DNA of 64,000 nucleotides from a phage, in the sequence record PZ674596.1, one strand, 5' to 3'. The translations under genes were made by a program, and so were the position numbers. Every line of letters begins with the position of its first letter. Position 1 is the stretch's first letter. Shown here in pieces: positions 4,801 through 32,748 of the stretch. The notes under the pieces are model-generated. The model was not told the DNA's origin and did not search any database. It worked only from the letters and a program-made list of their open reading frames with translations.

Positions 4801-5323
4801 CGCACTCATGACACGGATGGCGGCTGAAATGGGCTTAGGTGATGAACTAATCCGCCCCAGCATTGGTATTAAGCCGAAAATCATGATCATTCTGGACAAT
4901 GCGAACGGCAATGATGCTCGAACCGGTTACTTCATGGAGAACGGATACGACGACTTTAAGGCCAAGCTATTGACGGCTGGAGATTTACGCATGGGCGATC
5001 TCTATGTCACAGGCGTTTGCAAGAAGGTTAAAGACAAAGAAAAAGACTACACCAAAGACGAGATCGGCCAGTTCACCGACTTTATACGTGAAGAGATCAA
5101 TCTGGTGCGTCCGACCTATGTGCTGACGTGTGGCAGCCGGGCAACGGCATTGTTTAACAACAAAAACAAGCCATCCGATTTGGTCGGCAGGAAGGAGTAT
5201 CTTCCAGACCTTGACGTTACTGTCTTTTACGGGTTTAACCCCAACATTCTTTACTTCAGACCTGAAGAGGGAGAACGACTAGAAGCGATATTAGCCGACG
5301 TAGCAGAAACTATTAAGACGTGA
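1805..5323 (+). CDS. dnaE: DNA polymerase III alpha-subunit-like replicative polymerase (DnaE family) with divergent C-terminal ~170 aa
   Basis: 1172 aa; conserved DnaE core GYFLMVRDL...GPGRGSSAGSLVAWCIGIT..DPI..GLLFERFINPER; RBS AAAGGTAAAAACAC before ATG. Confidence 0.9.
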   Translation: MKALMVRTDFSLGESALKAENAVKIAREAGYTAVISADSMNIASVIPLQRAAGDDMAVICGVKLNIVDDPTYEHRAKLAKESMRCMESLERGRNYSFTALIKNEKGYRDICELMTAANTREQFYFVPRLSLEQLVSTYAKGNIILLTSDIGSVFQRNDFAKIISTLITAGGKDNFYSVVYPHPTPFYDQINVRAMKVASALKIEPVAFYPAYYESIDDADIKDIAHMVTNNIKIDQPHRLRIPHQRDNAVNGRRHLLEALKAFSVRMDVPVTAAMASTTQDTIIDACTWRWHELPPALPKMADDEPATLMKLAVAGLRKRLTTKEFGYTPPASENRVYVERLKYEMDTLTRLGFCGYFLMVRDLMNHSRETGIPVGPGRGSSAGSLVAWCIGITNVDPIRHGLLFERFINPERLDLPDADLDFSQARRHEVIEYLNERYGEDYVAGIPNFTYLGAASALRDTARIYGVESADMAVSKELRNVEDDSLPLEELREQLASLDKYATKYPDAFNAACKLQSLMRGFGRHAAGMIVAGVPLTERTPVERRGDARCIAFDKRYCEAMGLIKLDVLGLATLDLLDSAKRYIKENTGEDINLDAISLEDRKVLDGFAAGYTQGVFQLESGPMRKLLKDLGGGIEPMSFKTVVATTALFRPGPIQSGMLDDYVSVAKGFMTPESLHPVLDELTAETNGVILYQEQTMNATRLLAGFTMAEADGVRKAIGKKDMEKMKSMGEKFIVQAQAGWIDVELEDGTTQRIHRAEHFKCEDGTLKTVEEALEYGAKLPINAVRVTASHPGLSEMKAKEIWTAFEKNGAYQFNKSHSVAYSLISYQSMWLKTHYPAEFFAAALTILGEDKHQGLVKDALTYGIRVLPPDVNVSSNRIEIRTLEDGSQVLYAPFSAVKGCSENGCQAIMRAREKVGGKFESLAQFEEAVEKRACNSRVRESLQKVGAFASIEPGSLPATDPERLRDQAELMGNLVIDAVKASRPFEMNPKRSAEINALMTRMAAEMGLGDELIRPSIGIKPKIMIILDNANGNDARTGYFMENGYDDFKAKLLTAGDLRMGDLYVTGVCKKVKDKEKDYTKDEIGQFTDFIREEINLVRPTYVLTCGSRATALFNNKNKPSDLVGRKEYLPDLDVTVFYGFNPNILYFRPEEGERLEAILADVAETIKT

Positions 5324-12158: not shown

Positions 12159-12691
12159 ACCGCTGACAGCATACACAATCAACTACCGCTGATAGCATAT
12201 CGAGAGTCTATCTCACCGCTCACAGCATACTTTACTCGATTTTTTACCGCTGACAGCATACTTAAGAAATTGCATGAATAATGTGTCCCGGTATGGGTAT
12301 AACCAGAACAAAATTACCGCTGGCAGCATACGAATGTCTGACATATACCATTAATTACCGCTGATAGCATATCCAAACAAAAATTCCTCAATAAAACACC
12401 GCTGACAGCATACGTTCTATCAGGGAGTAGCAGGCAATAAATGCCTTTCACTACAAGCAATCAGCGCAATAGCAATAGAATGTTAGTGAGCGCAAACCTA
12501 TATGGAATGCACTCTTCGAGGTTAGTAACCACTGGGGAGGTATGACAGAGCATTGAGTGGTGATAGATGATTTACCGCTCACAGCATACGTTCATCTCAC
12601 TATACCGCTGGTAGCATATCTTTAACCGTTCACAGCATACTTTTCAGAAAAATAGCCGCTGATAGCATACATTTCACCGCTGACAGCATAT
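12159..12691. repeat. iteron array: 12 direct copies of 16-bp ACCGCTGACAGCATAC (incA-like, downstream of repA)
   Basis: Copies start near 12159, 12185, 12215, 12246, 12316, 12357, 12398, 12574, 12604, 12625, 12655, 12676; all in one orientation, 1-2 mismatches each. Confidence 0.85.
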
Positions 12692-13785
12692 CAAAGCAGT
12701 TTGAGACTATTGGAAAGGATCTCAATCATCTTGATATTTTCAGGCGTCAAATTCTGCGAAAGTTCGGTTATCTTGTTGATAATGTTCTGTTTGGCATCAA
12801 TTTCCCCAGCTTTCTCATCTGGTTTTTTGGGTTCGATGTCTTCAGGTTTTGGCGGTGCGACTTTGAGTTTTGGATTGCGGCTGTGAATCTGGATATAGAT
12901 CGACCGCCCACGCTTAATCTCGCTGTATTCGAGATAGCCCAAATCTTGGAGAGCTTTTAAGCCGTTACGTATAGTCTGATTCTGCGAGCTGACATTCCTG
13001 CTACTCAAATTGAGTCGCGCACGCAATCGAGCAAGCGATACCGGCGCAGGCTTGGTTGGAAGACTTTCGATGAAGGTGTACAGAGCCTGTGCTGTTTCTT
13101 TGCGTGGTAGCTTATTGATAACCTTTAACTGCAAAAGAACCTTATGGTCAAAGCGATATAGTTCGGCCAGCTTCGGTTCTGCATAGAACACCACCGTATC
13201 TTTCTGCTCGTTGTAGTCCACGCTATTGATGAGGTGCACCATCAGAAGCGAGATCTTGTTAGAGCCGTCGACGTTCTTTTCTTCATACGTTCTCTGGAAA
13301 GACAGAGTTGTACGCATGATCTTCAAAAGACTGTTTGTAAGCCGGTCGCGGAGTGTTTTGCGGATCTGTGACGATGGATAGCCACAAAACTTAGCAAATT
13401 TCGTGATGCTTAACTCGACACGACCGTTAGGTTCGCCGTATTCTGCCAGCGAACGCACAACGCCCACCCACGTTTTGAAATCATGATCCATGTCGAGACG
13501 AGGACCGGTTATCTTGATATCGGAATAGCCTTCAGAACGGGCTACTTCGAGCTGGACAAGCTCCTTTGAAGCATCGATCTCATTTGGCTTGTTACGTTTA
13601 CTGTATTTTGTTCCCTTAAGCGTGGGGACGAACAACCCCAGTCGCATCAACGCAATTGGTTGGACTGTATTGTTGCTATTAGGGACAAGTTCCCCTGTGT
13701 ACAATTCAAGGGAACCTTCTTCAAAGTTGTCGATGTTATCTTCTACTTCTTTGTTATTTTTACCTTTTTTATTTTTTGTGGACAT
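12691..13785 (-). CDS. repA: plasmid replication initiator RepA (P1 RepA / RepFIB-like)
   Basis: 364 aa from ATG 13785 (the table's N-terminal 40 aa is read-through of the iteron region); motifs SNNTVQPIALMRLG, DIKITGPRLDMD, LYTFIESLP, HSRNPKLK match my recollection of P1 RepA; flanked by iterons on both sides. Confidence 0.8.
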   Translation of the reverse strand: MSTKNKKGKNNKEVEDNIDNFEEGSLELYTGELVPNSNNTVQPIALMRLGLFVPTLKGTKYSKRNKPNEIDASKELVQLEVARSEGYSDIKITGPRLDMDHDFKTWVGVVRSLAEYGEPNGRVELSITKFAKFCGYPSSQIRKTLRDRLTNSLLKIMRTTLSFQRTYEEKNVDGSNKISLLMVHLINSVDYNEQKDTVVFYAEPKLAELYRFDHKVLLQLKVINKLPRKETAQALYTFIESLPTKPAPVSLARLRARLNLSSRNVSSQNQTIRNGLKALQDLGYLEYSEIKRGRSIYIQIHSRNPKLKVAPPKPEDIEPKKPDEKAGEIDAKQNIINKITELSQNLTPENIKMIEILSNSLKLL

Positions 13786-13805
13786 GTGGACACCTTTGTC
13801 ATTCA

Positions 13806-13907
13806 ACCGCTGACAGCATACTTGATTTGCCGCTGACAGAATACCAAAAACAGTTGGCAGCATACGGTGAACCGCTGACAGACTATCAATTACCGCTGAC
13901 AGCATAC
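13806..13907. repeat. upstream iterons (4 full + 1 half copy), incC/origin-like
   Basis: Same 16-bp iteron near 13806, 13829, 13871, 13892 plus half-site GGCAGCATAC near 13856. Confidence 0.75.
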
Positions 13908-13947: not shown

Positions 13948-14020
13948 GATCGGGGATCTTATTTGATCTATATAAGGATCTATCTATGGATCTCTTTATT
14001 AGGATCTATCCTGTGGATAT
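13948..14020. promoter_or_regulatory. origin-like region: six GATC sites in ~60 bp plus DnaA-box-like TGTGGATAT
   Basis: GATC at about 13948, 13955, 13965, 13977, 13989, 14003; CCTGTGGATAT at 14010-14020; next to the iterons. Confidence 0.55.
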
Positions 14021-19622: not shown

Positions 19623-21938
19623 ATGATAAGCATCGTAAAACGTAACGGCCAAACAGAGCCGTTATCCGAAGAAAAATACAACCGCGTCGTAATGTATGGC
19701 GTAGAAGGCATTCGTGGTGTAAGCGCATCCGCTGTAGCAATGGGAGCTGCGGCCAGCATTTTTGATGGGATGACCACCAGCCAGTTGCATGAGGCTTTGG
19801 TTAAATCTGCCGCTGATTTGATCTCACCAGAAGCACCAAATTACTCACAGGTGGCTGCCCGCCTGAACATTTTTAAAATCCGCAAAGATGCCTTCGGTCG
19901 TTACGACTATCCGAACTTCTACCAACACATTGTCAAGAACGTTAACAAGGGCGTTTATGACAAGGATTTGCTGACACATTATTCGTTTGAAGAGATCGAA
20001 GAACTCGGCAATTACATTAAGCCTAAACGTGACGATCTTTTTGGCTATGCAGCTACGGTGCAGTTGCAAAGCAAATACCTCGTTCAAAACCGTGTTACTG
20101 GTGAGATTCATGAGGGGCCGCAACATATCTATATGCTGGTAGGCATGTGTCTGTTCCAGAATTGGGAAGACGACTGCGCTGGCAAAACACGTATGGAGAT
20201 GGTCAAAGGTTTCTATGACGTTACAAGTACGTTCAAACTGTCTCTGCCCACACCAATCATGGCCGGCGTCCGTACTCCAACCCGTCAGTTCTCCAGTTGT
20301 GTGCTGATTGAGTCTGGCGATAGTCTGAAAGGGATTAGTGCAGCTTCAGCCGCAATTATCGACTACGTTTCACGTCGTGCTGGAATTGGTATTGGTTTTG
20401 GCCGTATCCGTGCGCTGGGCAGCGAGATCCGCAATGGTGAAGCCACCCATACCGGAGTTATTCCATTCCTGAAGCATTTCCAGACGGCTGTTAAATCTTG
20501 TTCGCAAGGTGGTGTTCGTGGTGGCGCAGCAACAGCGTTTTACCCGATCTGGCATCTTGAAGTTGAAAGTCTGCTGGTGGTGAAAAATAACCGTGGTATT
20601 GATGAAAACCGCGTTCGCCATCTTGATTACGGCGTCATGAGTAACCGTCTAATGTACCGTCGACTCGTCAGAAGCGAGAACATCACTCTGTTCAGCCCGC
20701 ATGATGTGCCTGATATGTACGAAGCCTTCTTCACAGACCAGGAGCTGTTTGAAAAGCTGTACCATAAATACGAAGCCGATGATTCAATTCGCAAGAAGTC
20801 AGTACCTGCCATTGAGCTGTTCTCATCTCTGATGCAGGAACGAGCGTCCACGGGCCGAATTTATATTGCGAACGTCGATCATATTAATGAGCATGGCGCT
20901 TTCATTCCTGCTCTTGCACCTGTCCGCCAGTCAAACCTGTGTATGGAGATCACCCTACCCACCCGTCCACTGGCATTTACCGACGACCCGAACGGTGAGA
21001 TCGCGCTATGCACTTTATCCGCTTTTAACCTCGGAGCCATCCGTTCACTGGAGTCTCTTAAAGAGGTGGCGTTCTATGCCGTTGCTGCACTGGATTCGTT
21101 ACTGGATTATCAAGACTATCCGATGGAGGCAGCCGAAGTGCCTGCCAAAGCTCGTCGTAGCTTGGGAATTGGTGTAACCAACTTTGCTTATTACCTGGCA
21201 AAGAATGGCGTTCGTTATTCTGATACCGCTGGCAATAAACTGGTGCATGAAACGTTCGAAGCTATCCAGTATTACCTTCTTGATGCCAGCTGCCGACTTG
21301 CTGAAGCAAAAGGTGAGTGTGACTGGTTTGAGCAGACCAAATACGCAATTGGTCAGTTGCCGATCGACCATTACCGTTCTTCATTAGACGAAAGTGGCGA
21401 AACCAACTTTGAGTTAAAGATGCCGTGGGAAGAACTGCGTGAACGTATTGCAAAATACGGCCTTCGCAACTCCACACTGACGGCACAAATGCCATGCGAG
21501 ACTTCCAGCCAGATCACTAATTCCACCAACGGCATCGAACCGCCTCGTGGCCCGGTGTCGGTGAAATCTTCTAAGGACGGCATCGTTAAGATGGTCGTGC
21601 CTGAGTTTGAAAAACTGAAGGAACAGTATGAATACCTGTGGGATATGCCGGACAACCGCGGCTATCTGACAAAGGTGGCGATCATCCAGAAGTTCTTTGA
21701 CCAGGCTATTTCAGCCAATACCAACTATGACCCTTCTCGCTTTGAAGGCGATAAAGTCCCAATGATGACGCTACTGTCAGATTTGCTTCTCGCCTACAAG
21801 ATGGGAGTTAAAACGCTTTACTACCACAACACCAGAGATGGTGCAGGAAAGCGTGATGACGACGAACCGCAGAATCCACTGGCGCAAGCTGTAGCCGTCG
21901 AGCCAGAAGATGAGTGCGACGGAGCCTGCAAAATCTGA
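19623..21938 (+). CDS. nrdA: ribonucleotide reductase class Ia large subunit
   Basis: 771 aa; active-site region SNLCMEITLP and overall NrdA-like sequence. Confidence 0.9.
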   Translation: MISIVKRNGQTEPLSEEKYNRVVMYGVEGIRGVSASAVAMGAAASIFDGMTTSQLHEALVKSAADLISPEAPNYSQVAARLNIFKIRKDAFGRYDYPNFYQHIVKNVNKGVYDKDLLTHYSFEEIEELGNYIKPKRDDLFGYAATVQLQSKYLVQNRVTGEIHEGPQHIYMLVGMCLFQNWEDDCAGKTRMEMVKGFYDVTSTFKLSLPTPIMAGVRTPTRQFSSCVLIESGDSLKGISAASAAIIDYVSRRAGIGIGFGRIRALGSEIRNGEATHTGVIPFLKHFQTAVKSCSQGGVRGGAATAFYPIWHLEVESLLVVKNNRGIDENRVRHLDYGVMSNRLMYRRLVRSENITLFSPHDVPDMYEAFFTDQELFEKLYHKYEADDSIRKKSVPAIELFSSLMQERASTGRIYIANVDHINEHGAFIPALAPVRQSNLCMEITLPTRPLAFTDDPNGEIALCTLSAFNLGAIRSLESLKEVAFYAVAALDSLLDYQDYPMEAAEVPAKARRSLGIGVTNFAYYLAKNGVRYSDTAGNKLVHETFEAIQYYLLDASCRLAEAKGECDWFEQTKYAIGQLPIDHYRSSLDESGETNFELKMPWEELRERIAKYGLRNSTLTAQMPCETSSQITNSTNGIEPPRGPVSVKSSKDGIVKMVVPEFEKLKEQYEYLWDMPDNRGYLTKVAIIQKFFDQAISANTNYDPSRFEGDKVPMMTLLSDLLLAYKMGVKTLYYHNTRDGAGKRDDDEPQNPLAQAVAVEPEDECDGACKI

Positions 21939-22044
21939 CATATGGTGGGGGATATCCCCACCTTCTCTTTGATTTGTAAGCCTTGTTTAAACACATAAGA
22001 TAACAACTTGTTTAAACGCACCAAAAAAGAAAAAGGAAAAACAC

Positions 22045-23187
22045 ATGTCATATTCAACGTTCCGTTTGGGTGCTAATGATGCAACCAAAGAGCCTATGTT
22101 CCTCGGACAATCTGTCAACGTGGCACGTTACGATCAGCAAAAATACCGTGATTTTGAAAAGTTGATTGAACGTCAATTGTCTTTCTTCTGGCGGCCGGAA
22201 GAAGTTGATATTTCGAGCGATCGTATCGACTTCAACACGAAGCTGCGGGACCACGAACGTCACATTTTTCTGAGCAATCTCCGTTATCAAACGTTACTCG
22301 ATTCAGTTCAGGGACGTAGTCCAAATGCAACGCTGCTGCCGCTTATCTCTATTCCTGAACTGGAAACGTGGGTTGAAACGTGGTCTTTCTCTGAGACTAT
22401 CCATAGCCGCAGCTACACCCACATTATTCGTGGCATGGTGGACGATCCGAGCATTGTTTTTGACGGTATTGTTACGGATGAAGAAATCATCAACCGAGCG
22501 ATCAGTATCTCTGCTGAATATGACAGGCTTTATGGGATGACCTGCGAGCGCCAGTCGTTAGGTGAGAAGGAATTTGAGCGTCTGTACGTAAATGAATATG
22601 GCTGGGAGCCATACCCTTTGCATCGTCAGCTTTTCCGCACGTTGGTGTCCATTAATGCGCTTGAGGCGATCCGTTTCTACGTAAGTTTTGCATGTACGTT
22701 TGCCTTTGGTGAACGGAAGTTGCTTGAGGGTAACACCAAAATTATGCGCTTTATTGCCCGTGATGAAGCTCTGCATTGCGAAGGAACTGAACGCATGATC
22801 CGCTTCATGCGTACCGGTCGCGAAGGTTTATTGTGGAAAGAGATTGCTGCTGATGAAGAAAACGTCATTTACGACACCATGAAATCAGTCGCCGAACAAG
22901 AAATGAACTGGGCAGACTATCTCTTCAAAGACGGTTCGATGATTGGTTTAAACGCGGATATTCTCAAAACCTATGTAAAATACCGCACCAATCTGGCTAT
23001 GAATCGTCTTGGCCTGAAGGCTTTATTTCCAGAAGTTACCACTGATCCGCTGGTCTGGATGAACAAGTGGTTGTTAACCGACACACTGCAAATTGCACCA
23101 CAAGAGGCAGAGCAAAGCACATATCTGGTAGGTCAGATCGATTCTACCGTGGATAAGGCTTCTCTAAGCCAGTTTGCAGACCTGTAA
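22045..23187 (+). CDS. nrdB: ribonucleotide reductase class Ia small subunit
   Basis: 380 aa; di-iron ligand motifs SETIHSRSY and DEALHCEG; start context AAAAAGGAAAAACACATG. Confidence 0.85.
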
Positions 23188-23264
23188 ACCGATACAAAGC
23201 ATTATGTGGCCTGGCAACGCTGGGCCACAATGGATCACAAGAATTAAGAAGGAGCAAAACTAGC

Positions 23265-24134
23265 ATGAACTTTACCAAACTGACTGACCACCTGAAACTT
23301 GCCACCGATCGACTCATTGGATTTAAGCCAGAACCATATGAGTTGCATGAAGGCCATGGTGTAGCCACTGAAAGTATTTACAAGATGGTCGATCAGTTTC
23401 ATGAACTCTTCCAGCATCCGAGACGCGTTATGCCGACACCAGAGCTGCTTCGTCTCCGTGCAAGCCTGATTCATGAAGAAGCTGTAGTGGAAGGTATTCC
23501 AGCCGCAATGAATGGGGATATTGAGCAACTGCTGGATGCAATGGCCGACTTTTTATACGTTGGTGTTGGTACGATGGTCGCCATCAAAGGTGGTATTTCT
23601 ACCGGCATGACTTATTACACGCAGGAACAGAGCATTGATCGCTTTATGCAGACAATTTTTGTGCCTGGTAACACTGTTTTCGATGATATGGCAATGCCAT
23701 TTCAGGAAGCTCGTGAGGCGTCATGTATGCTCGAAGAGCTGGCAGATAAACTTGAGAAGAAGACTGTTAAGGATTCTGAGCTGATTCAGGAACTGCGCCG
23801 TGTAATGAACAAAATCTATGTGGCGTGCATGATGACTTATCGACTGGCTGATTTTCTCGGTATCAATGTCGTCGAGCTGGTTGGCGAAATTCATCGGTCC
23901 AACATGACAAAATTATGGCCTGCAGATGCCGAAGAGCGTCGCCATGCTGTGGCCAACTGCAAATACGACTCTTCTGACCTGGGATTTCGCCATGCTGATG
24001 GCACCGATAAGATGATCGGTTTTCGAATTTCCGATGGAAAGATTCTGAAGTCTCCAACCTATAGTGATGTCGATTTATCCTCCTTTGTTGAGCAAGCTAA
24101 AGCCTCAGCAATGTACGGAATGATCAAAAAATAA
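23265..24134 (+). CDS. putative MazG-like all-alpha nucleotide pyrophosphohydrolase
   Basis: 289 aa; EExxE..D-like acidic motifs (HEEAVVEGI..DIEQLLDAMAD; EELADKLEKK); tentative. Confidence 0.35.
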   Translation: MNFTKLTDHLKLATDRLIGFKPEPYELHEGHGVATESIYKMVDQFHELFQHPRRVMPTPELLRLRASLIHEEAVVEGIPAAMNGDIEQLLDAMADFLYVGVGTMVAIKGGISTGMTYYTQEQSIDRFMQTIFVPGNTVFDDMAMPFQEAREASCMLEELADKLEKKTVKDSELIQELRRVMNKIYVACMMTYRLADFLGINVVELVGEIHRSNMTKLWPADAEERRHAVANCKYDSSDLGFRHADGTDKMIGFRISDGKILKSPTYSDVDLSSFVEQAKASAMYGMIKK

Positions 24135-24203
24135 TTGTAGGTAGTTATCTATCTGTGTATATTGCGCTGGCGCGTTAAATTTCTGAAACAACTATTCGTT
24201 TTT

Positions 24204-24228
24204 GGTGGCCTATGGCCACCATTTTTTT
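24204..24228 (+). terminator. Rho-independent terminator
   Basis: GGTGGCC-tat-GGCCACC followed by TTTTTTT. Confidence 0.7.
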
Positions 24229-24305
24229 ATCTGTCTGGTCTTGTTCTCTCAATAAATGTAAACTCACGCAATGAATAAGTGGTTACTTATCTTTGTGAGG
24301 TTTTT

Positions 24306-25409
24306 GTGTCACTCCTTTTGAATCGTGAGCATACGAACGGTCAGGTAACAAACGCATCGTATGCAAAAGTTATTGAGACGGTGCTTAAAAGCGGCGTGCA
24401 GGCTGATGATCGCACAGGCACTGGTACTTTAAGCACCTGTTACGTTCCCTCTTACTACATGCTTACTGGTGGGACTGTGCCGCTTATTTCTGGAAAGGCG
24501 GTAAATCTTAAGCCACTGCTTGTCGAACTTGAGTGGTATCTGAAAGGCACGGGCAACATCCAATTTCTCAAGGATAACGGCGTTAAGATTTGGGATGCAT
24601 GGGCCGATGAGAATGGCGATTTGGGGCCGGTTTACGGTAAGCAGTGGCGTCGATGGGAAGATACCCGCATCGTGAGCCATAGTGAATATCTGAGCAAGAT
24701 CGCTACTTTCCGTGAACGCGGGTACAAAGTCGAGGGATACCTGGGTATCAGTGAAGATCGCGTAGTGCTGTCCCGTGAAATCGATCAGCTACAGCGTATT
24801 GTCGATACACTGCGCACGAACCCTACCGATCGTCGCATCATGCTTAACGCATGGAACGTAGGCGAGCTTGAGGATATGAAACTGCCACCTTGCCACTTTG
24901 TCTTCTCTTTGTGGAGTCGTGAGCTGGATTTTGAAACCCGTTTAACGATGGCAACTGACATTGGTCTTCAACACAGTCGCCTCGGTTACGAGTCTATCTA
25001 CACCAAGATGCTATACGATCTGGAGATAGACGGCAGTGTTACTGAAGCTGAACTGGATGAACTTGGAATCCCCAAACGCATCCTCAACTCCTGCCTCGTA
25101 CAGCGTAGCGTAGACACTTTTGTTGGTATGCCATTCAATATTGCTGGCTATGGCATTCTCACTCATTTTCTCGCGAAGATTACGGGTCACATGGCCGGTG
25201 CATTTGTGCATTTTGGCTTTGACGTGCATTTGTACAACAACCACATGGAAGGTGTGTGTGAGCTAATGCAACGACAGGCTCCAGAGCATTCAGATCCGGT
25301 CGTTATATTCCCTAATGAATGGTCTGAGCTGGATGATTTCAAATGGGACGAGATTCTTATTCTTGGCTATGCCCCTCTACCGTGGATCAAGGTTCCAGTG
25401 GCGGTGTGA
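24306..25409 (+). CDS. thyA: thymidylate synthase (ThyA family, with insertions)
   Basis: ThyA motifs DRTGTGT, DRRIMLNAWNVGEL, PPCH, GMPFNIAGY; start uncertain: placed at in-frame GTG 24306 after GAGG, since table GTG 24279 lies inside an operator-like palindrome. Confidence 0.8.
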   Translation: MSLLLNREHTNGQVTNASYAKVIETVLKSGVQADDRTGTGTLSTCYVPSYYMLTGGTVPLISGKAVNLKPLLVELEWYLKGTGNIQFLKDNGVKIWDAWADENGDLGPVYGKQWRRWEDTRIVSHSEYLSKIATFRERGYKVEGYLGISEDRVVLSREIDQLQRIVDTLRTNPTDRRIMLNAWNVGELEDMKLPPCHFVFSLWSRELDFETRLTMATDIGLQHSRLGYESIYTKMLYDLEIDGSVTEAELDELGIPKRILNSCLVQRSVDTFVGMPFNIAGYGILTHFLAKITGHMAGAFVHFGFDVHLYNNHMEGVCELMQRQAPEHSDPVVIFPNEWSELDDFKWDEILILGYAPLPWIKVPVAV

Positions 25410-25410
25410 T

Positions 25411-25824
25411 ATGGCAAGAGGTATGTATGTCTTATGCGAAATTGAAGGTGTGCTGGCAAATACCAGCCATCGTAAATCTGTATCTGACTCGGATGCAGGC
25501 CAATTCATTGCCGGTGATGAACTCATTTTCCCCACCAGCCGTATGTTGCGTGGTTTTGCTCGCTCAGGGGCTGAAGTGGTGCTTATCAGTAGCCGCTCTG
25601 AAACTCTTGAAGCGCCCACTAAACGATGGCTGAAAGATTTTGGTGTTGATTACGACTGGCTTCACCTCGTACCGAATAGCACCAGTTATGAGAAGCATAT
25701 TAAGCGCACATTAGCGGAGCATAAAGGCGATCTGCTTATCGCTGCGCTGGTGCACGATCCTCGACTCCGTGCCGCTTTAGCTGACTCTCATCATAGACCG
25801 GTCATCTATGAGGTGAGCAAATGA
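25411..25824 (+). CDS. hypothetical protein
   Basis: 137 aa from ATG overlapping thyA stop; upstream part of table ORF overlaps thyA. Confidence 0.4.
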   Translation: MARGMYVLCEIEGVLANTSHRKSVSDSDAGQFIAGDELIFPTSRMLRGFARSGAEVVLISSRSETLEAPTKRWLKDFGVDYDWLHLVPNSTSYEKHIKRTLAEHKGDLLIAALVHDPRLRAALADSHHRPVIYEVSK

Positions 25825-26297
25825 AGATGATAGCTGCTGTTGGCCGTAACTATGAGATCGGCATAGCGAACGAACTGCCCTGGCGTTGTTCTACCGATCT
25901 GAAGCTATTTAAGAGACTCACCAAAAACGCCACTGTCGTTATGGGGCGTAAAACGATGGAAAGTCTCAAACGCCCTCTTCCAGAGCGTCATAACCTCGTT
26001 TTGACGCGCTCTCATGGCTTTGTACCAAATGGATTCTACCCTGCTGGTGTGGATGATGTGTTGCGATTACCAGAGCCTGTGTGGGTGATTGGCGGGGAAC
26101 AAATTTACTCGCTATTCATGCCGCATGTTGAAGAGATTTGGCTCTCCCACATCGGCGTTGATGTGCCAAACGCCGATGCATTCTTCCCGGCAAGCATGAT
26201 GCGTAATTTAGGCTTTGTGCCTGTTGAAACAGCTTATACCCAACGAGCCAGCGAGGAAGAGCCTGGCTTTTCGCAGATCGTATACAGAAGGTCGTAA
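25821..26297 (+). CDS. folA: dihydrofolate reductase
   Basis: 158 aa; DHFR-like N-terminus MIAAVGRNYEIG..LPW and VVMGRKT; adjacent to thyA as in T4 td/frd. Confidence 0.85.
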   Translation: MKMIAAVGRNYEIGIANELPWRCSTDLKLFKRLTKNATVVMGRKTMESLKRPLPERHNLVLTRSHGFVPNGFYPAGVDDVLRLPEPVWVIGGEQIYSLFMPHVEEIWLSHIGVDVPNADAFFPASMMRNLGFVPVETAYTQRASEEEPGFSQIVYRRS

Positions 26298-26941
26298 TGG
26301 ATTACCGGATTGGGATCACTGGTGCTCAGGGCAGTGGGAAAACAACCCTGGCTAAATATATCGACAAACATTACGGAATCCCTTACGTGGATGCTGGTGT
26401 CGGAAGTTTGATGAGCCGCCTCGGTGTTCGAGTAGGTGATTCTATGCCTCTATATGAGCGGCTTCAGATTCAAATGGAAATAGCAAAGCATATAGAGCTA
26501 CTTACGCGTGGTGCTGAAGGCTTTGTTATCGATCGCACACCTGCTGATGTTATGGCCTACACGTTGGATTTGGTCGGCCATACAAATGAAGATCGGTGTA
26601 TTGAGTTAGCCCTCGATATCGAAAAGTTTTGCCACAAAACTGCTATTTCAAACTTTAACGCCATTGCTGGCCTACGCCCGGGGGGCGCTCTCTCAGAGCG
26701 AGATTACTTGCGGTCACAACGAGCATCATTAGACCGTCTGTATGTCGCTCGTATTGATGCGTTGATGTGCGGGGAACTGACAAAAATTCACCTGCATCCG
26801 CAAAGGGGAGATCTGCAAACCTTCGTCGTTTCCAACCGGTATCGCACAGTTGAAGCAAGAGCCAGATCAGTGATGAGAATGCTAGATAACGCTGTAGAAA
26901 AGATAGAAAACCGGTTCTGTGGCCGAGTGACCGTTCATTAG
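26297..26941 (+). CDS. P-loop nucleoside/nucleotide kinase-like protein
   Basis: 214 aa; Walker A GITGAQGSGKTT at N-terminus. Confidence 0.5.
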   Translation: MDYRIGITGAQGSGKTTLAKYIDKHYGIPYVDAGVGSLMSRLGVRVGDSMPLYERLQIQMEIAKHIELLTRGAEGFVIDRTPADVMAYTLDLVGHTNEDRCIELALDIEKFCHKTAISNFNAIAGLRPGGALSERDYLRSQRASLDRLYVARIDALMCGELTKIHLHPQRGDLQTFVVSNRYRTVEARARSVMRMLDNAVEKIENRFCGRVTVH

Positions 26942-27002
26942 AAATTGTTCGCCTCTTCGACATTGCGACAATAAAACTCTCAAAATGGGTTAAGGATAAA
27001 AA

Positions 27003-27422
27003 ATGTTTAGTGAAATGTTGCTTGAAGATGAACTGGATCGGAAAACAACAGAGGCTTTGATTCGTGTAGCGGACGAACATTCCCGGTCGCTTATGAGCGA
27101 TCGAGAGGCTCGTCTGGCTATTCGTGCCATATTCGAAACTGCGCAGGGGCTTGTTGGCGCACAAGTAGGTGAAGCCATTAACATCGCCATGTCTCAGTTC
27201 AGTGAAGACAGTAAAAAGCCTCTGTTTCCTATGCATTTGATGCTGGCTGGTGGCACGGTGCTTTATATCTCTGTTTGTCTGGATAGCAACCAAATCAATA
27301 TTCTCAACACTGCGTCAGGTAAGTGGAAAGATCCGATTGTCTGTGAAACCAGTGAAGAAACTTTGAAAAAAGCGGCTCAATTTGTACGTAGCGCACTACT
27401 TAAGGGCGCTAAGAAGTTGTAA
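27003..27422 (+). CDS. hypothetical protein
   Basis: 139 aa; no recognised motif. Confidence 0.45.
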   Translation: MFSEMLLEDELDRKTTEALIRVADEHSRSLMSDREARLAIRAIFETAQGLVGAQVGEAINIAMSQFSEDSKKPLFPMHLMLAGGTVLYISVCLDSNQINILNTASGKWKDPIVCETSEETLKKAAQFVRSALLKGAKKL

Positions 27423-28929: not shown

Positions 28930-29739
28930 ATGAGTTCGGTTGAAAATGTAATGACAAATGATGATCTGGACGAGCTGACAGCCATGTTGCAATCACTTGA
29001 TGAACCAGTAAAAAAAGCTGCACAGGTTGAAAATACTGATGATATTGACGATCTGCTGCTCGGCCTAGATGCTGGCGTAGCCATGAGTTCTGATGATGTT
29101 GCCGAAGAACTGTTCAATGAAGAAAAAGCAGGTGATTTCAGCTCTGCTTTAAATGAGTTGGAGTTAGCGCATGAGCCTATAAACATAATTAACGCTGAAA
29201 GTGTTGAAGCTGCCGAAAACGAGCCAGAACAATTGGGATTTATTGAGGTTGAAGAGTGTGTTGAGGTTAATGATGAATTAAAAGTTCAACAGTCAAATGA
29301 TAGCAATACAAATAAAAAAGCTCGTACTGCAAGAGGTCCTCGTTTTACTTTAAGTGATAAAGATGATTCGTTTTTCAATAAAGCGGGCTTAGAAAAAGAT
29401 ATTTTCTTAGACGCTTACGATAACGCGCCTGTCAAAGCAAAGGATAAGATATTAAACCTTCTTAATTGGTTTAGCGGAGGTCCAGATATTAGTGTTTACA
29501 CGGTAATTTCCATGAGACACCTTCTCACAGAAAAGAAGGCTACAAGTAATAGTATTAAGATTGCTTTAATGAGCAATCCAGAAAAACCGTATCCGCTTAA
29601 TACTGCGTCAACTCAGGCTGGGCAAATGATGGCTGTATTTCCAGCGACAGGAATTGCCGTTAGAGACGGTGGAAATCTAACATTGAACGAAGAATCACCG
29701 ATCGTTAAGAAGTTTGTCGCGGAGTACACTATTGGATGA
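28930..29739 (+). CDS. acidic hypothetical protein (candidate DNA mimic)
   Basis: 269 aa; N-terminal ~120 aa very rich in D/E; RBS AAGGAG. Confidence 0.5.
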   Translation: MSSVENVMTNDDLDELTAMLQSLDEPVKKAAQVENTDDIDDLLLGLDAGVAMSSDDVAEELFNEEKAGDFSSALNELELAHEPINIINAESVEAAENEPEQLGFIEVEECVEVNDELKVQQSNDSNTNKKARTARGPRFTLSDKDDSFFNKAGLEKDIFLDAYDNAPVKAKDKILNLLNWFSGGPDISVYTVISMRHLLTEKKATSNSIKIALMSNPEKPYPLNTASTQAGQMMAVFPATGIAVRDGGNLTLNEESPIVKKFVAEYTIG

Positions 29740-29813
29740 CGTTCCCCTACTTAAAATAAAGCCCATAGAGAGCTTTATAGTACTGGGTAAGCCAATCACA
29801 TACCCAGCACCAC

Positions 29814-29860
29814 AAAAACGCGCCAGAGAGCTTCTCGTTTGCATTTCTGGCGCGTTTTAT
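29814..29860. terminator. bidirectional hairpin terminator
   Basis: AAAACGCGCCAGA...TCTGGCGCGTTTT perfect inverted repeat. Confidence 0.6.
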
Positions 29861-29922
29861 TTGATTGCCAGACATAAAATCAAATGCAAAAATAGGTATA
29901 TACTTACCTATCGAGAAAGAAG

Positions 29923-30516
29923 ATGATTGCAGCCGAAAAAATCAAACAGCGAAAGCGCGACAACTCTCTTCGTGACCTCTGGAGAACACCTGACTGGCTG
30001 TTTTCTGCCATTCAACGTTATCTTGGAGTGACATTTGATGTTGACGTTGCCTGCAACAAGGACAATGCAAAGCTGCCTAATTTCATAGGCGTTGAGCGTG
30101 ATGCTTTGAAATCTGAATGGGGACAGCCAGGTACAATTGCCTTCCTCAATCCACCCTACTCCAAAATCTACCCCTGGATTGATGCGGCTATACGTGAGCA
30201 GGCTCGTGGAGTTACAACAGTGATGCTAATTCCTCAATCCCTAGATACAAAGTGGTATGAGCGTGCAACAGAGTGTGCGAATGAGACGATTATTCTGTCT
30301 GGTGGCCGCGTAGCGTTTGTCGAGCCTGACGTAAATCTGGGTCAGGTAGAAGTAAACATCAACCCAGGTGGCAGTATGCTCGTTGTTTTTCGAGGATTCT
30401 GTCAGGACGCTGGGCACTCTATAAGCAAGATCCCTTTGGACGTCATGAAAAGTCTGGGAGGGTATGATCCTGCGAATGTGATCAGGAAAAAAAGACCATC
30501 AAAGAAGGCTGCTTAG
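29923..30516 (+). CDS. phage-type N6-adenine DNA methyltransferase (Dam-like)
   Basis: 197 aa; catalytic motif FLNPPYS; small size typical of phage Dam family. Confidence 0.75.
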   Translation: MIAAEKIKQRKRDNSLRDLWRTPDWLFSAIQRYLGVTFDVDVACNKDNAKLPNFIGVERDALKSEWGQPGTIAFLNPPYSKIYPWIDAAIREQARGVTTVMLIPQSLDTKWYERATECANETIILSGGRVAFVEPDVNLGQVEVNINPGGSMLVVFRGFCQDAGHSISKIPLDVMKSLGGYDPANVIRKKRPSKKAA

Positions 30517-30537
30517 TTTGTTCTGGCGTCTGTAATT

Positions 30538-30595
30538 AGCCTGCTTCTGTATATATAAATAACTACATATTAATTATTAATATACGGAAGCAGGC
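30538..30595. repeat. large AT-rich palindrome (copy 1 of 2)
   Basis: AGCCTGCTTCTGTATATATAAAT...ATATACGGAAGCAGGC; near-identical arms recur at 63197-63251. Confidence 0.7.
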
Positions 30596-30701
30596 AGCTT
30601 TGTATCAGAGACTCCAGACCTGAACATCACTACAGAATCCACTAGAACCCCTTCCCAGACGCTTTAAAATCGATTTTATGAACCACTTTAAGGAAACCAA
30701 C

Positions 30702-30932
30702 ATGTCATACCCGACTAATGTCGTTGCGCTCGTAGAGAGCGATTTTCTGGCCCAGGCTCGTGAAATGATGAAAGATCGTGAGCAGGCTTTCAACTTGTAC
30801 GAATGGGCAATTAAGTGCTTGCATCTTGGCGAGCATCGCGAACTTGTTGAACAGCTTTTAGGTGAGTTGATCAATGAGGTGTTTGCCTTGAATGTTCAAC
30901 TACATGGTAGAGAAAATAATCAATCACAATGA
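30702..30932 (+). CDS. hypothetical protein
   Basis: 76 aa from ATG after AAGGAAACC; table ORF starts 24 nt earlier. Confidence 0.4.
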   Translation: MSYPTNVVALVESDFLAQAREMMKDREQAFNLYEWAIKCLHLGEHRELVEQLLGELINEVFALNVQLHGRENNQSQ

Positions 30933-31514
30933 TAGATAAGTACAAACTATTCATAAAGTGAATTGTAAGTGCTAAGATCTGATAGTTTCCAGTCGTAGAC
31001 TGGAGACTCGACCTGATGGGTGGGGGTAAGCGTCACTGGCGTCAGGTTTAAAAAAGCTCACTACCAGCGTAGAACTGGTGCCGTTTAGGTGTCGGGGAAG
31101 GGGGAACCAAAGTGAGCAGAGACAAGGGTCACTTTATGATTGTCGAGTCTGGGGTGTTTCGAGAGGTTGAATCCAGTACTCCCCTTCATAAAGTGTGGGA
31201 AGATCTCGGTTCTGGGGTGCTGTCATCCATAACTTCCCAAGTCTAAGCTGGCAGTAGACTTAGACCATAACTTTTCAGGTTATGAAACGACCAGGTTGGT
31301 GAGAGATTTTTATACTCACCTCCCTGGGAGAGTATTACCTGAAAAGACAACCTCTCACTTCGTTCGAGGTGAACTTCACTCACTTCGTTCGTTCAGTTCA
31401 GGTTTATAAAAACCTGTTCTGGGAAGTAATTTGTTTATTTTAATAATTATTAACACGCACGCGTGTGCGCACGCGCGAGGAAAAATCGGCGCGGCGCTTG
31501 ATTCAGGAGTTTAT

Positions 31515-32105
31515 ATGACGACGAAGACACCAGCCCGATCGCAAGCAAAAACTCGCAAAAAAGCCAAAAACAAAAATTCCCCCCGCACCAATCCCACAAC
31601 GCCTGTCGTAGAGTTCAATCCCCAGCTTAAAACCGTGAAAATCTTTAGTGATGGCTCTTGCCTTAAAAATCCGGGTGGCCCGGGCGGTTACGGTATCGTT
31701 CTCCAGTATCGTGGTGAGGAACGCGAGTTCTCAGATGGTTTTCATAGCACCACCAATAACCGCATGGAGATGATGGGGGCACTTATCGGGCTGGAGCGTT
31801 TGAAATATCCATGCAACGTTATTTTGCACTCTGATAGCCAGTATCTGAAAAACGGCATGACACAGTGGATGAAATGGTGGAAACGCAATGGATGGATGAC
31901 TTCTGACAAAAAACCGGTAAAGAATGTTGATCTGTGGAAGCGTCTGGATGAGGCCGCAAGTCGACATAATGTTCGCTGGAAGTGGGTTAAAGGTCACGCC
32001 GGGCATCGTGAAAATGAAATATGTGATCGACTCGCGAAGATCGCAGCTTTTTCAGCAGCAGATATGCCTCACAAGAAAGATATTGGTTTTGTTTATAATA
32101 AATAG
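31515..32105 (+). CDS. rnhA: ribonuclease HI with basic N-terminal extension
   Basis: Near-complete match to RNase HI core ([35 protein letters not shown]); start at ATG 31515 after CAGGAG. Confidence 0.85.
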
Positions 32106-32253
32106 TAAGTAAGTGTTTACCTATCATTTTAAATCATGTATCTTATCGGCGTCAGGATGACAATGTGTCGGTAAGACACAGTTCCAGGATGGAACGAGAA
32201 AGGCGGCTGGCAATCGCCAGCCGCAACTCTTTCTGACACTGGATGGAGTCCAC

Positions 32254-32748
32254 ATGGCACGTCAAACCTATTTCACTTCTGTAACTAAACGCCCTCGTTC
32301 TTTACGTCAAATTTTGGCCGAATTATTTAGCGGTCGTGTTATGTCACGCCTTGAAGAACTAGAGACTACCGTTCGGTTGCTGAATGAACGTTTAGATAAT
32401 CAAGCGTCAGTTGTTGCGAACGTGGGGGCGATTGTTGCCTCTGGCTCTTCACGCGAAGCGAAAAATGCACGGCCTTTAGTGAAGGAGAAAAACAACAAGG
32501 ACAGTTCGAATGGAAAATTTTCAAAGAAAGAGGCTGAAACCAATGGCCTACGTTCTCATTATAGTTTCACTGGCGACGGTAGCCGTTCCAGCCGGTCAGA
32601 GCCTTTTGATGCCGGATTCATCCATCACCACACCTTCGTCGACGACAATTACCACCACTCCAGTGGAGCGTCCTGTCACTCTGGATGGGATGGCGGTGGA
32701 TGCGATACCTCAAGTTCATCCAGTTACTCAGGATCATGCTGTGACTAA
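32254..32748 (+). CDS. hypothetical protein (frame uncertain)
   Basis: 164 aa; 3' part is low-complexity S/G/C-rich and overlaps an alternative frame 32510..32761. Confidence 0.3.
   Translation: MARQTYFTSVTKRPRSLRQILAELFSGRVMSRLEELETTVRLLNERLDNQASVVANVGAIVASGSSREAKNARPLVKEKNNKDSSNGKFSKKEAETNGLRSHYSFTGDGSRSSRSEPFDAGFIHHHTFVDDNYHHSSGASCHSGWDGGGCDTSSSSSYSGSCCD

Follow-up and report, generated by a model that had tools for sequence, protein, structure and literature searches.

In the phage sequence record PZ674596.1, a run of genes for DNA metabolism is interrupted by a gap of about 580 bp just upstream of rnhA, the gene for RNase HI, and the question that this locus raises is what such a gap encodes if it does not encode protein. 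The gap spans positions 30935-31514 of a stretch of 64,000 nucleotides (hereafter, the window), and an initial annotation of that stretch proposed that it may hold a small RNA or a regulatory leader. We consider it probable that ~30985-31441, on the plus strand, is a free-standing gene for a highly structured noncoding RNA (ncRNA) of ~455 nt, specific to and core in phage-plasmids of the SSU5/pHCM2 type. This reading draws on sequence conservation, covariation across a core at 31007-31430, a strand test, recombination breakpoints near 31441, and published RNA-seq of the copy carried by the phage Cyrano.

Non-mobilizable E. coli plasmids of ~110 kb share the region with 100% identity, and it also has counterparts in Salmonella phage SSU5, in pHCM2, in E. 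coli phage Cyrano (pLF82), and in several hundred plasmids of Klebsiella, Enterobacter and Citrobacter. Because of these matches to SSU5, pHCM2, Cyrano and related plasmids, the window can be placed among the SSU5/pHCM2-type phage-plasmids. The gap sits in a long co-directional block of DNA-metabolism genes that runs through nrdAB, thyA, dhfr, an epsilon-like exonuclease, Dam and an open reading frame (ORF) of 84 aa before the gap, and continues with rnhA after it.

The element is conserved beyond its neighbors

Homologues turned up by scanning plasmids, phages, species-representative genomes, viral contigs and metagenomes fall into two sequence clades: the SSU5 group, or clade A, within which identity is at least 81%, and clade B, a set of ~110-kb Cronobacter-like elements with 57-68% identity to clade A. 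The element is present in 687 plasmids of PLSDB (clade A and a few of clade B), 310 of them from Klebsiella, and in 12 phage records. It is carried by 232 of 5,426 complete E. coli genomes (~4%), nearly always on a plasmid, and no record among these 232 carrier genomes annotates it. Pattern scans of genome, viral and metagenome contigs, together with BLAST searches from clade B, gave only clades A and B and no more distant homologues. The other pattern matches were set aside as chance, nhmmer having found no similarity in them, and a match in an Acidobacteria metagenome-assembled genome (L015; L numbers denote the individual sequences compared) was judged likewise.

We profiled conservation as mean pairwise identity in an alignment of ten lineages from Dam to rnhA. 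Identity is 0.90-1.00 over 31038-31397, with 31198-31237 completely identical in all 10 lineages, and ~30985-31441 as a whole is 90-100% identical across the elements of E. coli, Salmonella, Klebsiella, Enterobacter and Citrobacter. The flanking genes score lower in the same alignment (Dam, 0.77-0.89; the 84-aa ORF, 0.77-0.88; rnhA, 0.63-0.89), and a 269-aa protein encoded two genes upstream shares only 53-58% amino-acid identity between the E. coli type and the Klebsiella and Salmonella types. Past ~31437 conservation drops sharply (0.44), and no part of the gap is less conserved than the zone of a Z-DNA-like tract that follows, at 0.44-0.74. Paired and unpaired positions of the element alike are very highly conserved, and several of the invariant segments are unpaired. 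The element is a core and unusually conserved part of the SSU5/pHCM2-type phage-plasmids of E. coli, Klebsiella and Salmonella.

The plus strand folds as an RNA under selection

The gap had been described from the outset as poor in ORFs and dense in hairpins, and both descriptions hold. The longest ORF on either strand of 30935-31430 is 46 aa, the sole exception being a spurious TTG-start extension of rnhA from 31431, and the plus strand of 30980-31450 folds at -169.5 kcal/mol (z = -5.1), with 0 of 100 shuffles as good. The individual motifs named by the initial annotation are likewise where it put them: the hairpins CCAGTC-gta-GACTGG (30989-31003) and GGTTT-ataa-AAACC (31401-31414), the hairpin arms GGTGAGAG and ACTCACC (31298 and 31314), and two copies each of the direct repeats CTCACTTCGTTCG (31354 and 31379) and TCTGGGGTG (31148 and 31211). 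Its description of the stretch as GC-rich was mistaken: the GC content there is 45.5%, and that of the window as a whole is 46.0%. The plus strand of the gap does carry an excess of G over C, with a GC skew of +0.15 vs +0.04 for the window; the last 60 nt of the gap alone reach 60% GC, and a 25-nt spacer at 31428-31452 is 4% GC.

Structure was assessed on a structure-blind MAFFT alignment of 34 non-redundant sequences. For these 34 sequences RNAalifold predicts 92 pairs, 25 of them compensatory. A curated model of 15 helices plus a pseudoknot (97 pairs) was then scored on the MAFFT alignment, with helix partners slid by 1-3 columns as controls. Standard pairs fill 95.5% of pair cells, compared with 33-47% in the slid controls; 25 pairs show changes on both sides (3-7 in controls), amounting to 139 cells (13-30 in controls), and none of 500 shuffles matched the observed covariation values. 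Among paired cells, G·U outnumbers A·C by 289 to 33, and the alifold energy is -92 kcal/mol for the plus strand and -59 kcal/mol for the minus strand, so the RNA strand is the plus strand. An RNA fold of at least 12 helices is under selection on that strand.

The helices are distributed along the whole element. P2 (31012-18 with 31040-46), whose apical part holds the invariant segment GGGUGGRGG, passes through a compensatory series of CCUGAUG/CGUCAGG, UCUGGUG/CACCAGA and GCAGAUG/CGUCUGC. P3 (31056-61 with 31112-17) encloses P4 and the G-runs at 31094-31104 and has changed on both sides in three of its six pairs, while P4 itself (31075-82 with 31088-95), as read from the alignment, is re-made with another sequence and loop in Klebsiella, in L055 and in clade B (loop GAAA/GGAA). 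P6 (31130-39 with 31186-95) encloses P7 and a stem with a GAGA loop (31159-66), and three pairs have changed on both sides in each of P6 and P7 (31149-53 with 31172-76); across the P6 region, 31130-31195, CACUUUAUGA/UCAUAAAGUG is replaced by CAUUCUAUGA/UCAUAGAAUG and by CACUGUAGG/CCUACAGUG. P8 (31196-202 with 31233-39) encloses both the invariant GAUCUYGRUUCUGGGGU and P9 (31215-19 with 31224-28). All cells are paired in P8, P9 and P10 (31241-50 with 31255-65), which contribute three, one and five pairs, respectively, that have changed in a compensatory manner. P11 (31266-71 with 31279-84) has one pair changed on both sides, and P12, in two parts (31291-95 with 31323-27, and 31298-303 with 31315-20), has two compensatory pairs. 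A further compensatory example is the replacement of GUCUAAG/CUUAGAC by ACCGGGA/UCUCGGU.

P12 is spanned by a putative pseudoknot, which we infer from the alignment, between the loop of P11 (31272-79, UUUUCAGG) and a partner 60 nt downstream (31338-45, CCUGAAAA). At the same places clade B, read by hand from the alignment, has UUCUGG and CCAGAA, and because MAFFT shifts these columns the tool's count understates the support for this pairing. The 3' domain (31347-31400) contains the direct repeats CUCACUUCGUUCG (31354-66 and 31379-91), drawn in the model in the loops of P13 (31351-54 with 31366-69) and P14 (31370-75 with 31395-400); clade B has three loops of this repeat type, compared with two in clade A. 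Several mutually exclusive pairings are possible in this domain, which lacks covariation because it is invariant in clade A.

One copy departs from this organization. A contig of Buttiauxella gaviniae (L013, 4830-5163) carries a 5'-truncated version that lacks P1-P4 and begins at the equivalent of window position ~31108, and may be a decayed or recombined remnant.

A discrete transcript in lysogens

A published study of the E. coli strain LF82 annotated a 135-nt 'hypothetical protein', CYRAN_81, within the Cyrano copy of the element (PMC9928086). That copy is 97% identical to the element of the window, in which CYRAN_81 corresponds to 31112-31246. In LB, CYRAN_81 stands at 12x the local prophage background (PMC9928086, Table 1). 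Its fragments per kilobase per million (FPKM) value is 117, against 9.5 for CYRAN_80, the ORF upstream, and 8.4 for rnhA (PMC9928086, S1 Table). Its log2 values are 6.8-10.35, compared with 2.6-5.8 for its neighbors, in all ten samples, and it peaks at 6 h inside macrophages after a ~10-fold rise (PMC9928086). The element is thus transcribed 8-40x above both flanking genes in the LF82 lysogen, RNA abundance falls ~14-fold from the element to rnhA, and the transcript is about as abundant as the mRNA of the prophage repressor (PMC9928086). Because the values for CYRAN_81 so far exceed those of both neighbors, the element's transcript in the lysogen is a discrete one at the level of the repressor mRNA.

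The limits of this transcript can be predicted. A candidate sigma-70 promoter lies at 30950-30978 on the plus strand, with a -35 hexamer TTCATA (30950-55), a 17-bp spacer, an extended TG (30970-71) and a -10 hexamer TAAGAT (30973-78). In an alignment of 13 sequences that includes clade B, G30969, T30970, T30973, A30974, A30977 and T30978 are invariant. The extended -10 pattern TGnTAnnAT occurs in most lineages; G30971 varies in Klebsiella, where our promoter scanner reports no TG. The scanner calls a plus-strand site at the aligned place in SSU5 (TTTAAA-17-TAAAAT, with TG), in Klebsiella (TTTACA-17-TAGAAT, 10/12) and in L055, and makes no call for the window's own version, whose score is 8/12. 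Transcription would start at ~30985, ~7 nt past the -10 hexamer. The hairpin P1 (30984-31008; AGUUUCCAGUC-GUA-GACUGGAGACU) would then occupy the extreme 5' end, 6-7 bases past the promoter, and P1 resembles the protective stem-loops usual at 5' ends. Its sequence differs in all 10 lineages tested, and a hairpin of 6-11 bp folds in each.

At the other end, P15 (31399-405 with 31410-16) covaries in L069 and L055 and is followed by an invariant UCUGGG (31418-23) and a U-rich tract (31430-46). These presumably form the terminator, with a 3' end at ~31420-31445. UCUGGG forms the 3' half of terminator-like hairpins called in clade B (ACCCAUUCUGGGU followed by AUUAUUUCAU) and in L055 (ACUUCC...GGAAGU followed by AAGUUCUUUU). 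Taken together, the promoter, the 5' hairpin and the 3' hairpin with its U tract therefore predict an RNA from ~30985 to ~31441, or ~455 nt. We also considered as a terminator a long-range stem between ACUUCCCA (31233-40) and UGGGAAGU (31420-27), which is perfect in clade A, absent from clade B, and in competition with the covarying P8; it was not adopted and is kept only as a possibility.

Two further sites flank the transcription unit. A hairpin or palindrome directly past the stop of the small upstream ORF overlaps the -35 region of the RNA gene (window 30935-30965; L001 3036-3050; L116 7081-7100), in the versions GGTAAGTACTTACC in SSU5, GTAAGTAATAATTTACTTAC in the group that we describe below as clade C, and AAATAGCTGTTTAGCTATTT in clade B, and could be either a terminator of the upstream gene or an operator. 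Just 5' of rnhA, a terminator-like site on the minus strand (UCGCGCGCCGCGA followed by CGAUUUUUUU; L001 3601-3613, L004 2994-3006, window ~31478-31500) would keep antisense transcription out of the RNA gene.

The annotation of the locus in existing records is affected. The ORFs of 30-46 aa in the element were rejected as protein-coding: they are not conserved, suffer frameshifting indels in L007 and L005, and lose their start codons in clade B. CYRAN_81 itself, of 44 aa, is a spurious ORF within the RNA (window 31112-31246; L002 3213-3347), disrupted by frameshifting indels in L007 and L005 and left without a start codon in clade B. In SSU5, the start assigned to rnhA (SSU5_090) is ~55 codons too early and overlaps the 3' end of the RNA (L001 3471-3636), as does that of the TTG-start ORF in the window (31431-31514).

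Independence from rnhA

The element stays intact where rnhA has been replaced: in a Cronobacter plasmid of clade B (L003), in a Citrobacter plasmid with betT as cargo (L011), and in an E. coli plasmid with other ORFs (L012). Homology to such variants ends at ~31441-31490, where recombination breakpoints swap the downstream cargo. As the element persists where rnhA is replaced, and as RNA abundance in LF82 falls before rnhA is reached, the element does not appear to be a leader of rnhA; nor is it co-transcribed with the downstream gene in the conditions sampled (FPKM 117 vs 8.4, with the same pattern across the 10 samples). rnhA is a neighbor, and not a partner that the RNA requires. The proposal of a small RNA or regulatory leader therefore survives in part. 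That the gap encodes an RNA is borne out by covariation, a conserved promoter and published RNA-seq, and the transcript and conserved structure whose joint absence would have told against it are both present; the RNA is not small, given its ~455 nt and complex fold, and it is not an rnhA leader.

A more elaborate cis-acting role can still be formulated. The element could be an attenuator, P4-CI-like or riboswitch-like, whose folded domain senses a signal and whose alternative 3' helices gate rnhA and the early DNA-metabolism genes, the gate being closed in lysogens. The 3' end of the element can be drawn, in both clades, as a chain of mutually exclusive helices, which, if its successive segments are numbered, pairs 1 with 2 (P13), 2 with 3 (a GAGG-tetraloop-CYUC hairpin), 3 with 4 (P14), 4 with 5 (P15), and 5 with 6 (the UCUGGG hairpin), and the partner of UCUGGG is re-made from lineage to lineage as CCUG, ACUUCC, AAACC or ACCCA. 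RNAalifold also pairs the invariant GUGGRGG (31020-26) with CCUCUCAC (CCUC-U-CAC, 31351-58), 330 nt away. Since the 3' helices are mutually exclusive and GUGGRGG can pair with CCUCUCAC, a switch between termination and read-through may exist here, and the halt of lysogen transcription ahead of rnhA and the shared orientation of all the neighboring genes would suit it. However, the element is unchanged when the downstream gene is swapped, whether for betT, for other ORFs, or for the different gene of clade B, and its positional analogue in clade C closes with a canonical terminator, the next gene being convergent in L119 and L120. A sensor of ~430 nt would also be far above the size of any known riboswitch, and the alternative helices are thermodynamic only, without covariation support, in a domain that is invariant in clade A. 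We therefore regard an attenuator as unlikely and continue to favor a free-standing RNA gene.

A different structured RNA occupies the same slot in clade C

The slot between the 84-aa ORF and rnhA is not empty where the element is missing. In 30 Klebsiella SSU5-like phage-plasmids of the same backbone, the element is replaced by another unit of ~400 nt, which we refer to as clade C (L116 7081-7652, corresponding to 80.5-81.07 kb of CP018360.1; also L118, L119 and L120). The order there is a small ORF, the RNA, and then rnhA or other cargo. The region upstream of the unit is homologous and contains a promoter-like site; the unit itself has a hairpin at its 5' end and a structured, G-rich core, and it closes with a canonical terminator (UUCGGCC..GGCCGAAG+U7) whose GC stem is 7 bp long. 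In L119 and L120 the next gene is convergent. It folds at -124 kcal/mol with 111 pairs, 11 of which are compensatory among four sequences. Searches by nhmmer and by a covariance model of the central domain (filters off) detected no similarity between the clade C unit and the RNA of the window, and the clade C element is probably a second novel RNA class.

A backbone marker protein is found in 741 plasmids, of which 687 have the element and 30 have the clade C analogue, or ~717 together. The slot thus appears almost always to hold a structured RNA gene that is exchanged as a cassette. The ~717 of 741 slots that carry a structured RNA, together with this exchange, are therefore more in keeping with a core determinant specific to each lineage than with an accessory gene or a leader.

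Comparison with known RNAs

The initial annotation suggested scans for Rfam families and for tRNAs, and both came back negative. At gathering thresholds, none of the 4227 models of Rfam 15, which include riboswitches, C4, RNAI, 6S, tmRNA, RNase P and introns, matches anywhere in the window. An E-value scan of 30700-31700 returned chance-level hits only, the best scoring 21.5 bits against a 56-bit cut-off and lying in the GC tract, and E-value scans of four other lineages gave no match in the element. ARAGORN found no tRNA or tmRNA, and the searchable literature yielded no description of the RNA. Judged by Rfam 15, RefSeq annotation and the searchable literature, the RNA belongs to no described family, while prophage ncRNA genes that run from a promoter to a terminator are in general a familiar kind.

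Among the systems that it recalls, the prophage immunity RNAs P4 CI, P1/P7 c4 and N15 CA (Rfam family C4) are ~70-80 nt processed RNAs whose processing involves RNase P. Like them, the element resides on a plasmid-type prophage and heads a set of co-directional early genes; the lysogen transcribes it from a promoter that looks constitutive, and in the LF82 RNA-seq transcription ceases before those genes. It also has internal repeats, and, as one would expect of a specificity determinant, it is strongly conserved inside each lineage and replaced from one lineage to another. It differs in its size of ~455 nt, in its fold of at least 12 helices plus a pseudoknot, and in the lack of an Rfam match in five lineages, and the window lineage has no antirepressor gene downstream. 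The CUCACUUCGUUC repeats of clade A have a complement in GAAC-C-AAAGUGAG (31104-16), but the corresponding segment of clade B, GAAUCAAAGCAGGAG, lacks this complementarity, so the conserved complementarity that marks these immunity RNAs is not found here.

The element also resembles the large 'ornate' ncRNAs of unknown function, such as the GOLLD, ROOL, OLE, raiA and HEARO classes, in being several hundred nucleotides long, in having many covarying helices and invariant unpaired segments, and in its residence on a phage or mobile element. It is distinguished from these by the absence of cmscan similarity to any Rfam model, by a narrow range confined to two clades of one Enterobacteriaceae phage-plasmid backbone, by its location away from tRNA genes, and by an ordinary sigma-70 promoter and terminator, both predicted. 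Toxin-antitoxin systems were considered and rejected: the small ORFs are neither hydrophobic nor conserved, as a type I RNA would call for, and for type III there is no tandem antitoxin array and the downstream gene varies.

Replication and DNA-level alternatives

In its size (~450-550 nt), its promoter, its dense structure and its G-runs, the element resembles ColE1 RNA II. One could accordingly propose a replication element: an RNA II-like pre-primer, or an R-loop origin for lytic replication, in which a G-rich transcript runs into an AT-rich unwinding region and is processed by RNase H, with the repeats serving as DNA iterons. The spacer directly 3' of the RNA is 25 nt at 4% GC, rnhA is the next gene in most members, and the transcript is made in the carrier state. 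A precedent for this proposal comes from the phage-plasmids of mycobacteriophages, in which prophages are known to replicate by an RNA-based mechanism (PMC7157519). Two sequences from elsewhere could be cited in its favor. In a distant relative from Aeromonas caviae (L117 6150-6700; NZ_CP091177.1), this slot is occupied by a perfect DnaA box (TGTGGATAA) together with six or more iterons (AGATCAGTTTGTCCACCTT), beside a long minus-strand ORF, and is by these features a plasmid origin. In L034 (6284-6350; also L061 and L025), the linker of the gene for a 442-aa PHROG 'replication initiation protein', a typical site for a phage origin, contains a 23-nt identity to the clade B hairpin (ACAACCTCTCACTACGTTCGAGG) and, after it, the palindrome CGTGCGCGCACG; this identity could be chance (~0.03 expected) or a shared module, and we do not rely on it.

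A replication role nevertheless seems very unlikely to us. The phage-plasmid has its own replicon 17 kb upstream of the gap, with a Rep_3-family initiator of 404 aa (12691-13905, minus strand) and adjoining GATC-rich direct repeats of period 12/26 (13965-14018) that look like an origin with Dam sites; carrier plasmids are typed IncFIB. Minus-strand sites compared among the window, SSU5, Klebsiella and clade B include no conserved antisense promoter of the RNA I kind, and GC skew has no inflection at 31 kb. Conservation is lowest in the AT-rich spacer and past it, the element persists without rnhA, and its 3' ends in clade B, in the L055 lineage of clade A and in the clade C analogue are terminator-like, and do not suggest read-through into an origin. 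The RNA II analogy thus fails on the presence of a Rep initiator, the lack of a conserved antisense promoter, and the terminator-like 3' ends. As an iteron origin the locus fares no better: clade A offers just two 13-nt repeats 25 nt apart, with no DnaA box, no adjacent initiator gene and no skew inflection, and of the expected features only the AT-rich 25-mer is present.

It is scarcely credible that the locus acts solely as DNA, as a site for protein binding, recombination or packaging or as single-strand hairpins, with the RNA structure and RNA-seq signal as by-products: conservation is very high at unpaired positions too and the cargo-swap breakpoints cluster at 31441-31490 beside a Z-DNA-prone tract, but compensatory changes maintain 25 pairs, the tolerance of G·U and avoidance of A·C point to one strand folding as RNA, the promoter and 5' hairpin are conserved by position and not by sequence, and the transcript reaches the abundance of the prophage repressor mRNA.

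The Z-DNA-prone tract and the flanking genes

The 25-nt alternating purine-pyrimidine run that the initial annotation saw at the end of the gap is present at 31453-31477 (ACACGCACGCGTGTGCGCACGCGCG). It is the longest in the window, where the runner-up is 14 nt, and exceeds anything in 200 shuffles (mean maximum 16, top 24). As a long alternating run rich in CG and CA it would be prone to form Z-DNA. The tract lies outside the RNA core, past the AT-rich spacer and on the RNA side of the breakpoints, and its GC-tract motif has no second copy in the window. Its length and sequence vary: pHCM2 lacks 12 nt of it, and clade B keeps a CGCGCG remnant, while L011 and L012, both without rnhA, retain the tract. 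As RNA it would form two GC hairpins just 5' of the rnhA ribosome-binding site. An A tract lies just past it in SSU5 and Klebsiella, and the complement of that A tract, on the opposite strand, supplies the U tail of a terminator-like site. The Z-DNA-prone tract may serve as a barrier or as a hotspot for recombination, or it may belong to the rnhA 5' untranslated region.

The 84-aa ORF at 30678-30932 (plus strand; PHROG 5343, function not assigned) forms the left border, lies outside the RNA, and is syntenic in every lineage compared. On the right, rnhA (31515-32105, plus strand; PF00075) encodes an RNase HI with a basic N-terminal extension of 39 aa; its true start is the ATG at 31515, preceded by the ribosome-binding site AGGAG (31505-09), and the ORF that begins with TTG at 31431 is a spurious extension of it. 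Pfam and PHROGs assign Dam, RNase H and TerB among the context proteins and leave the remainder as proteins of unknown function; none near the element is recognized as an RNA-binding or reverse transcriptase-like partner. The intergenic region between rnhA and the next gene (32106-32253) contains a strong, bidirectional terminator-like hairpin at 32203-32224 (GCGGCTGGC-AATC-GCCAGCCGC) along with further hairpins, and a counterpart of different sequence occurs in clade B (L003 3476-3497).

Elsewhere in the window, 1805-5323 encodes a DnaE-like Pol III alpha subunit, which the phage-plasmid thus supplies itself. The plasmid L115 (NZ_CP082122.1) is identical to the window over 30600-31700, and its variable region 3' of the RNA (21358-27282 and 29203-32494) carries a type I restriction-modification system as well as metG and apbC, apparently captured chromosomal genes.

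Possible roles and implications

How the RNA acts can be sketched only tentatively. It may act as RNA in the plasmid-prophage state, possibly in trans, and its invariant unpaired segments GGGUGGRGG and GAUCUYGRUUCUGGGGU, together with the repeated UCACUUCGUUC loops, could bind a protein or nucleic-acid partner. It might in this way be a lineage-specific determinant of maintenance or immunity, and the mutually exclusive 3' helices may set the level of read-through into the downstream early genes. A broader proposal, for which our confidence is low though not negligible, is that the RNA represents a previously unrecognized class of large and complex RNA (~455 nt, at least 12 helices, pseudoknots and invariant unpaired segments) that is a core functional part of these phage-plasmids, swapped as a cassette with the unrelated RNA of clade C, and acting either as a specificity determinant (in immunity, incompatibility, or the control of replication or induction) or as a ribonucleoprotein or catalytic RNA.

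Several observations weigh against a free-standing RNA gene of this kind and temper our confidence in it. No partner or target emerged, and the 64-kb window holds no above-chance complementary site for the loop motif. Both ends of the transcript are predictions from sequence, and the stem of the presumed terminator is weak in the window lineage (CCUG/UGGG). The LF82 signal covers just the 135 nt of CYRAN_81, in RNA-seq whose strand specificity is not confirmed. Within the fold, 31347-31430 is invariant in clade A, P13 is without covariation support, and P14 has only a hand-read comparison of clade A with clade B. The compensatory signal comes mostly from the single split between clades A and B, with few changes inside clade A, and so represents a modest number of independent events. 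Part of the high conservation could also stem from an overlapping function at the DNA level.

To our knowledge, few bacterial RNAs this large and complex are without a known function, and those that have been studied gave new biochemistry. This one should be tractable, as inducible and culturable hosts exist in LF82/Cyrano and in PhiR41_1 on MG1655, and public RNA-seq can be re-read at nucleotide level. The natural swap of cassettes among clades A, B and C is in addition a ready-made comparison of specificity. Records in which spurious ORFs or an over-extended rnhA run across the RNA gene need correction. SSU5/pHCM2-like phage-plasmids are common in clinical Enterobacteriaceae and carry resistance genes, and the most conserved feature of these elements that is not a protein is an RNA that had gone unannotated.

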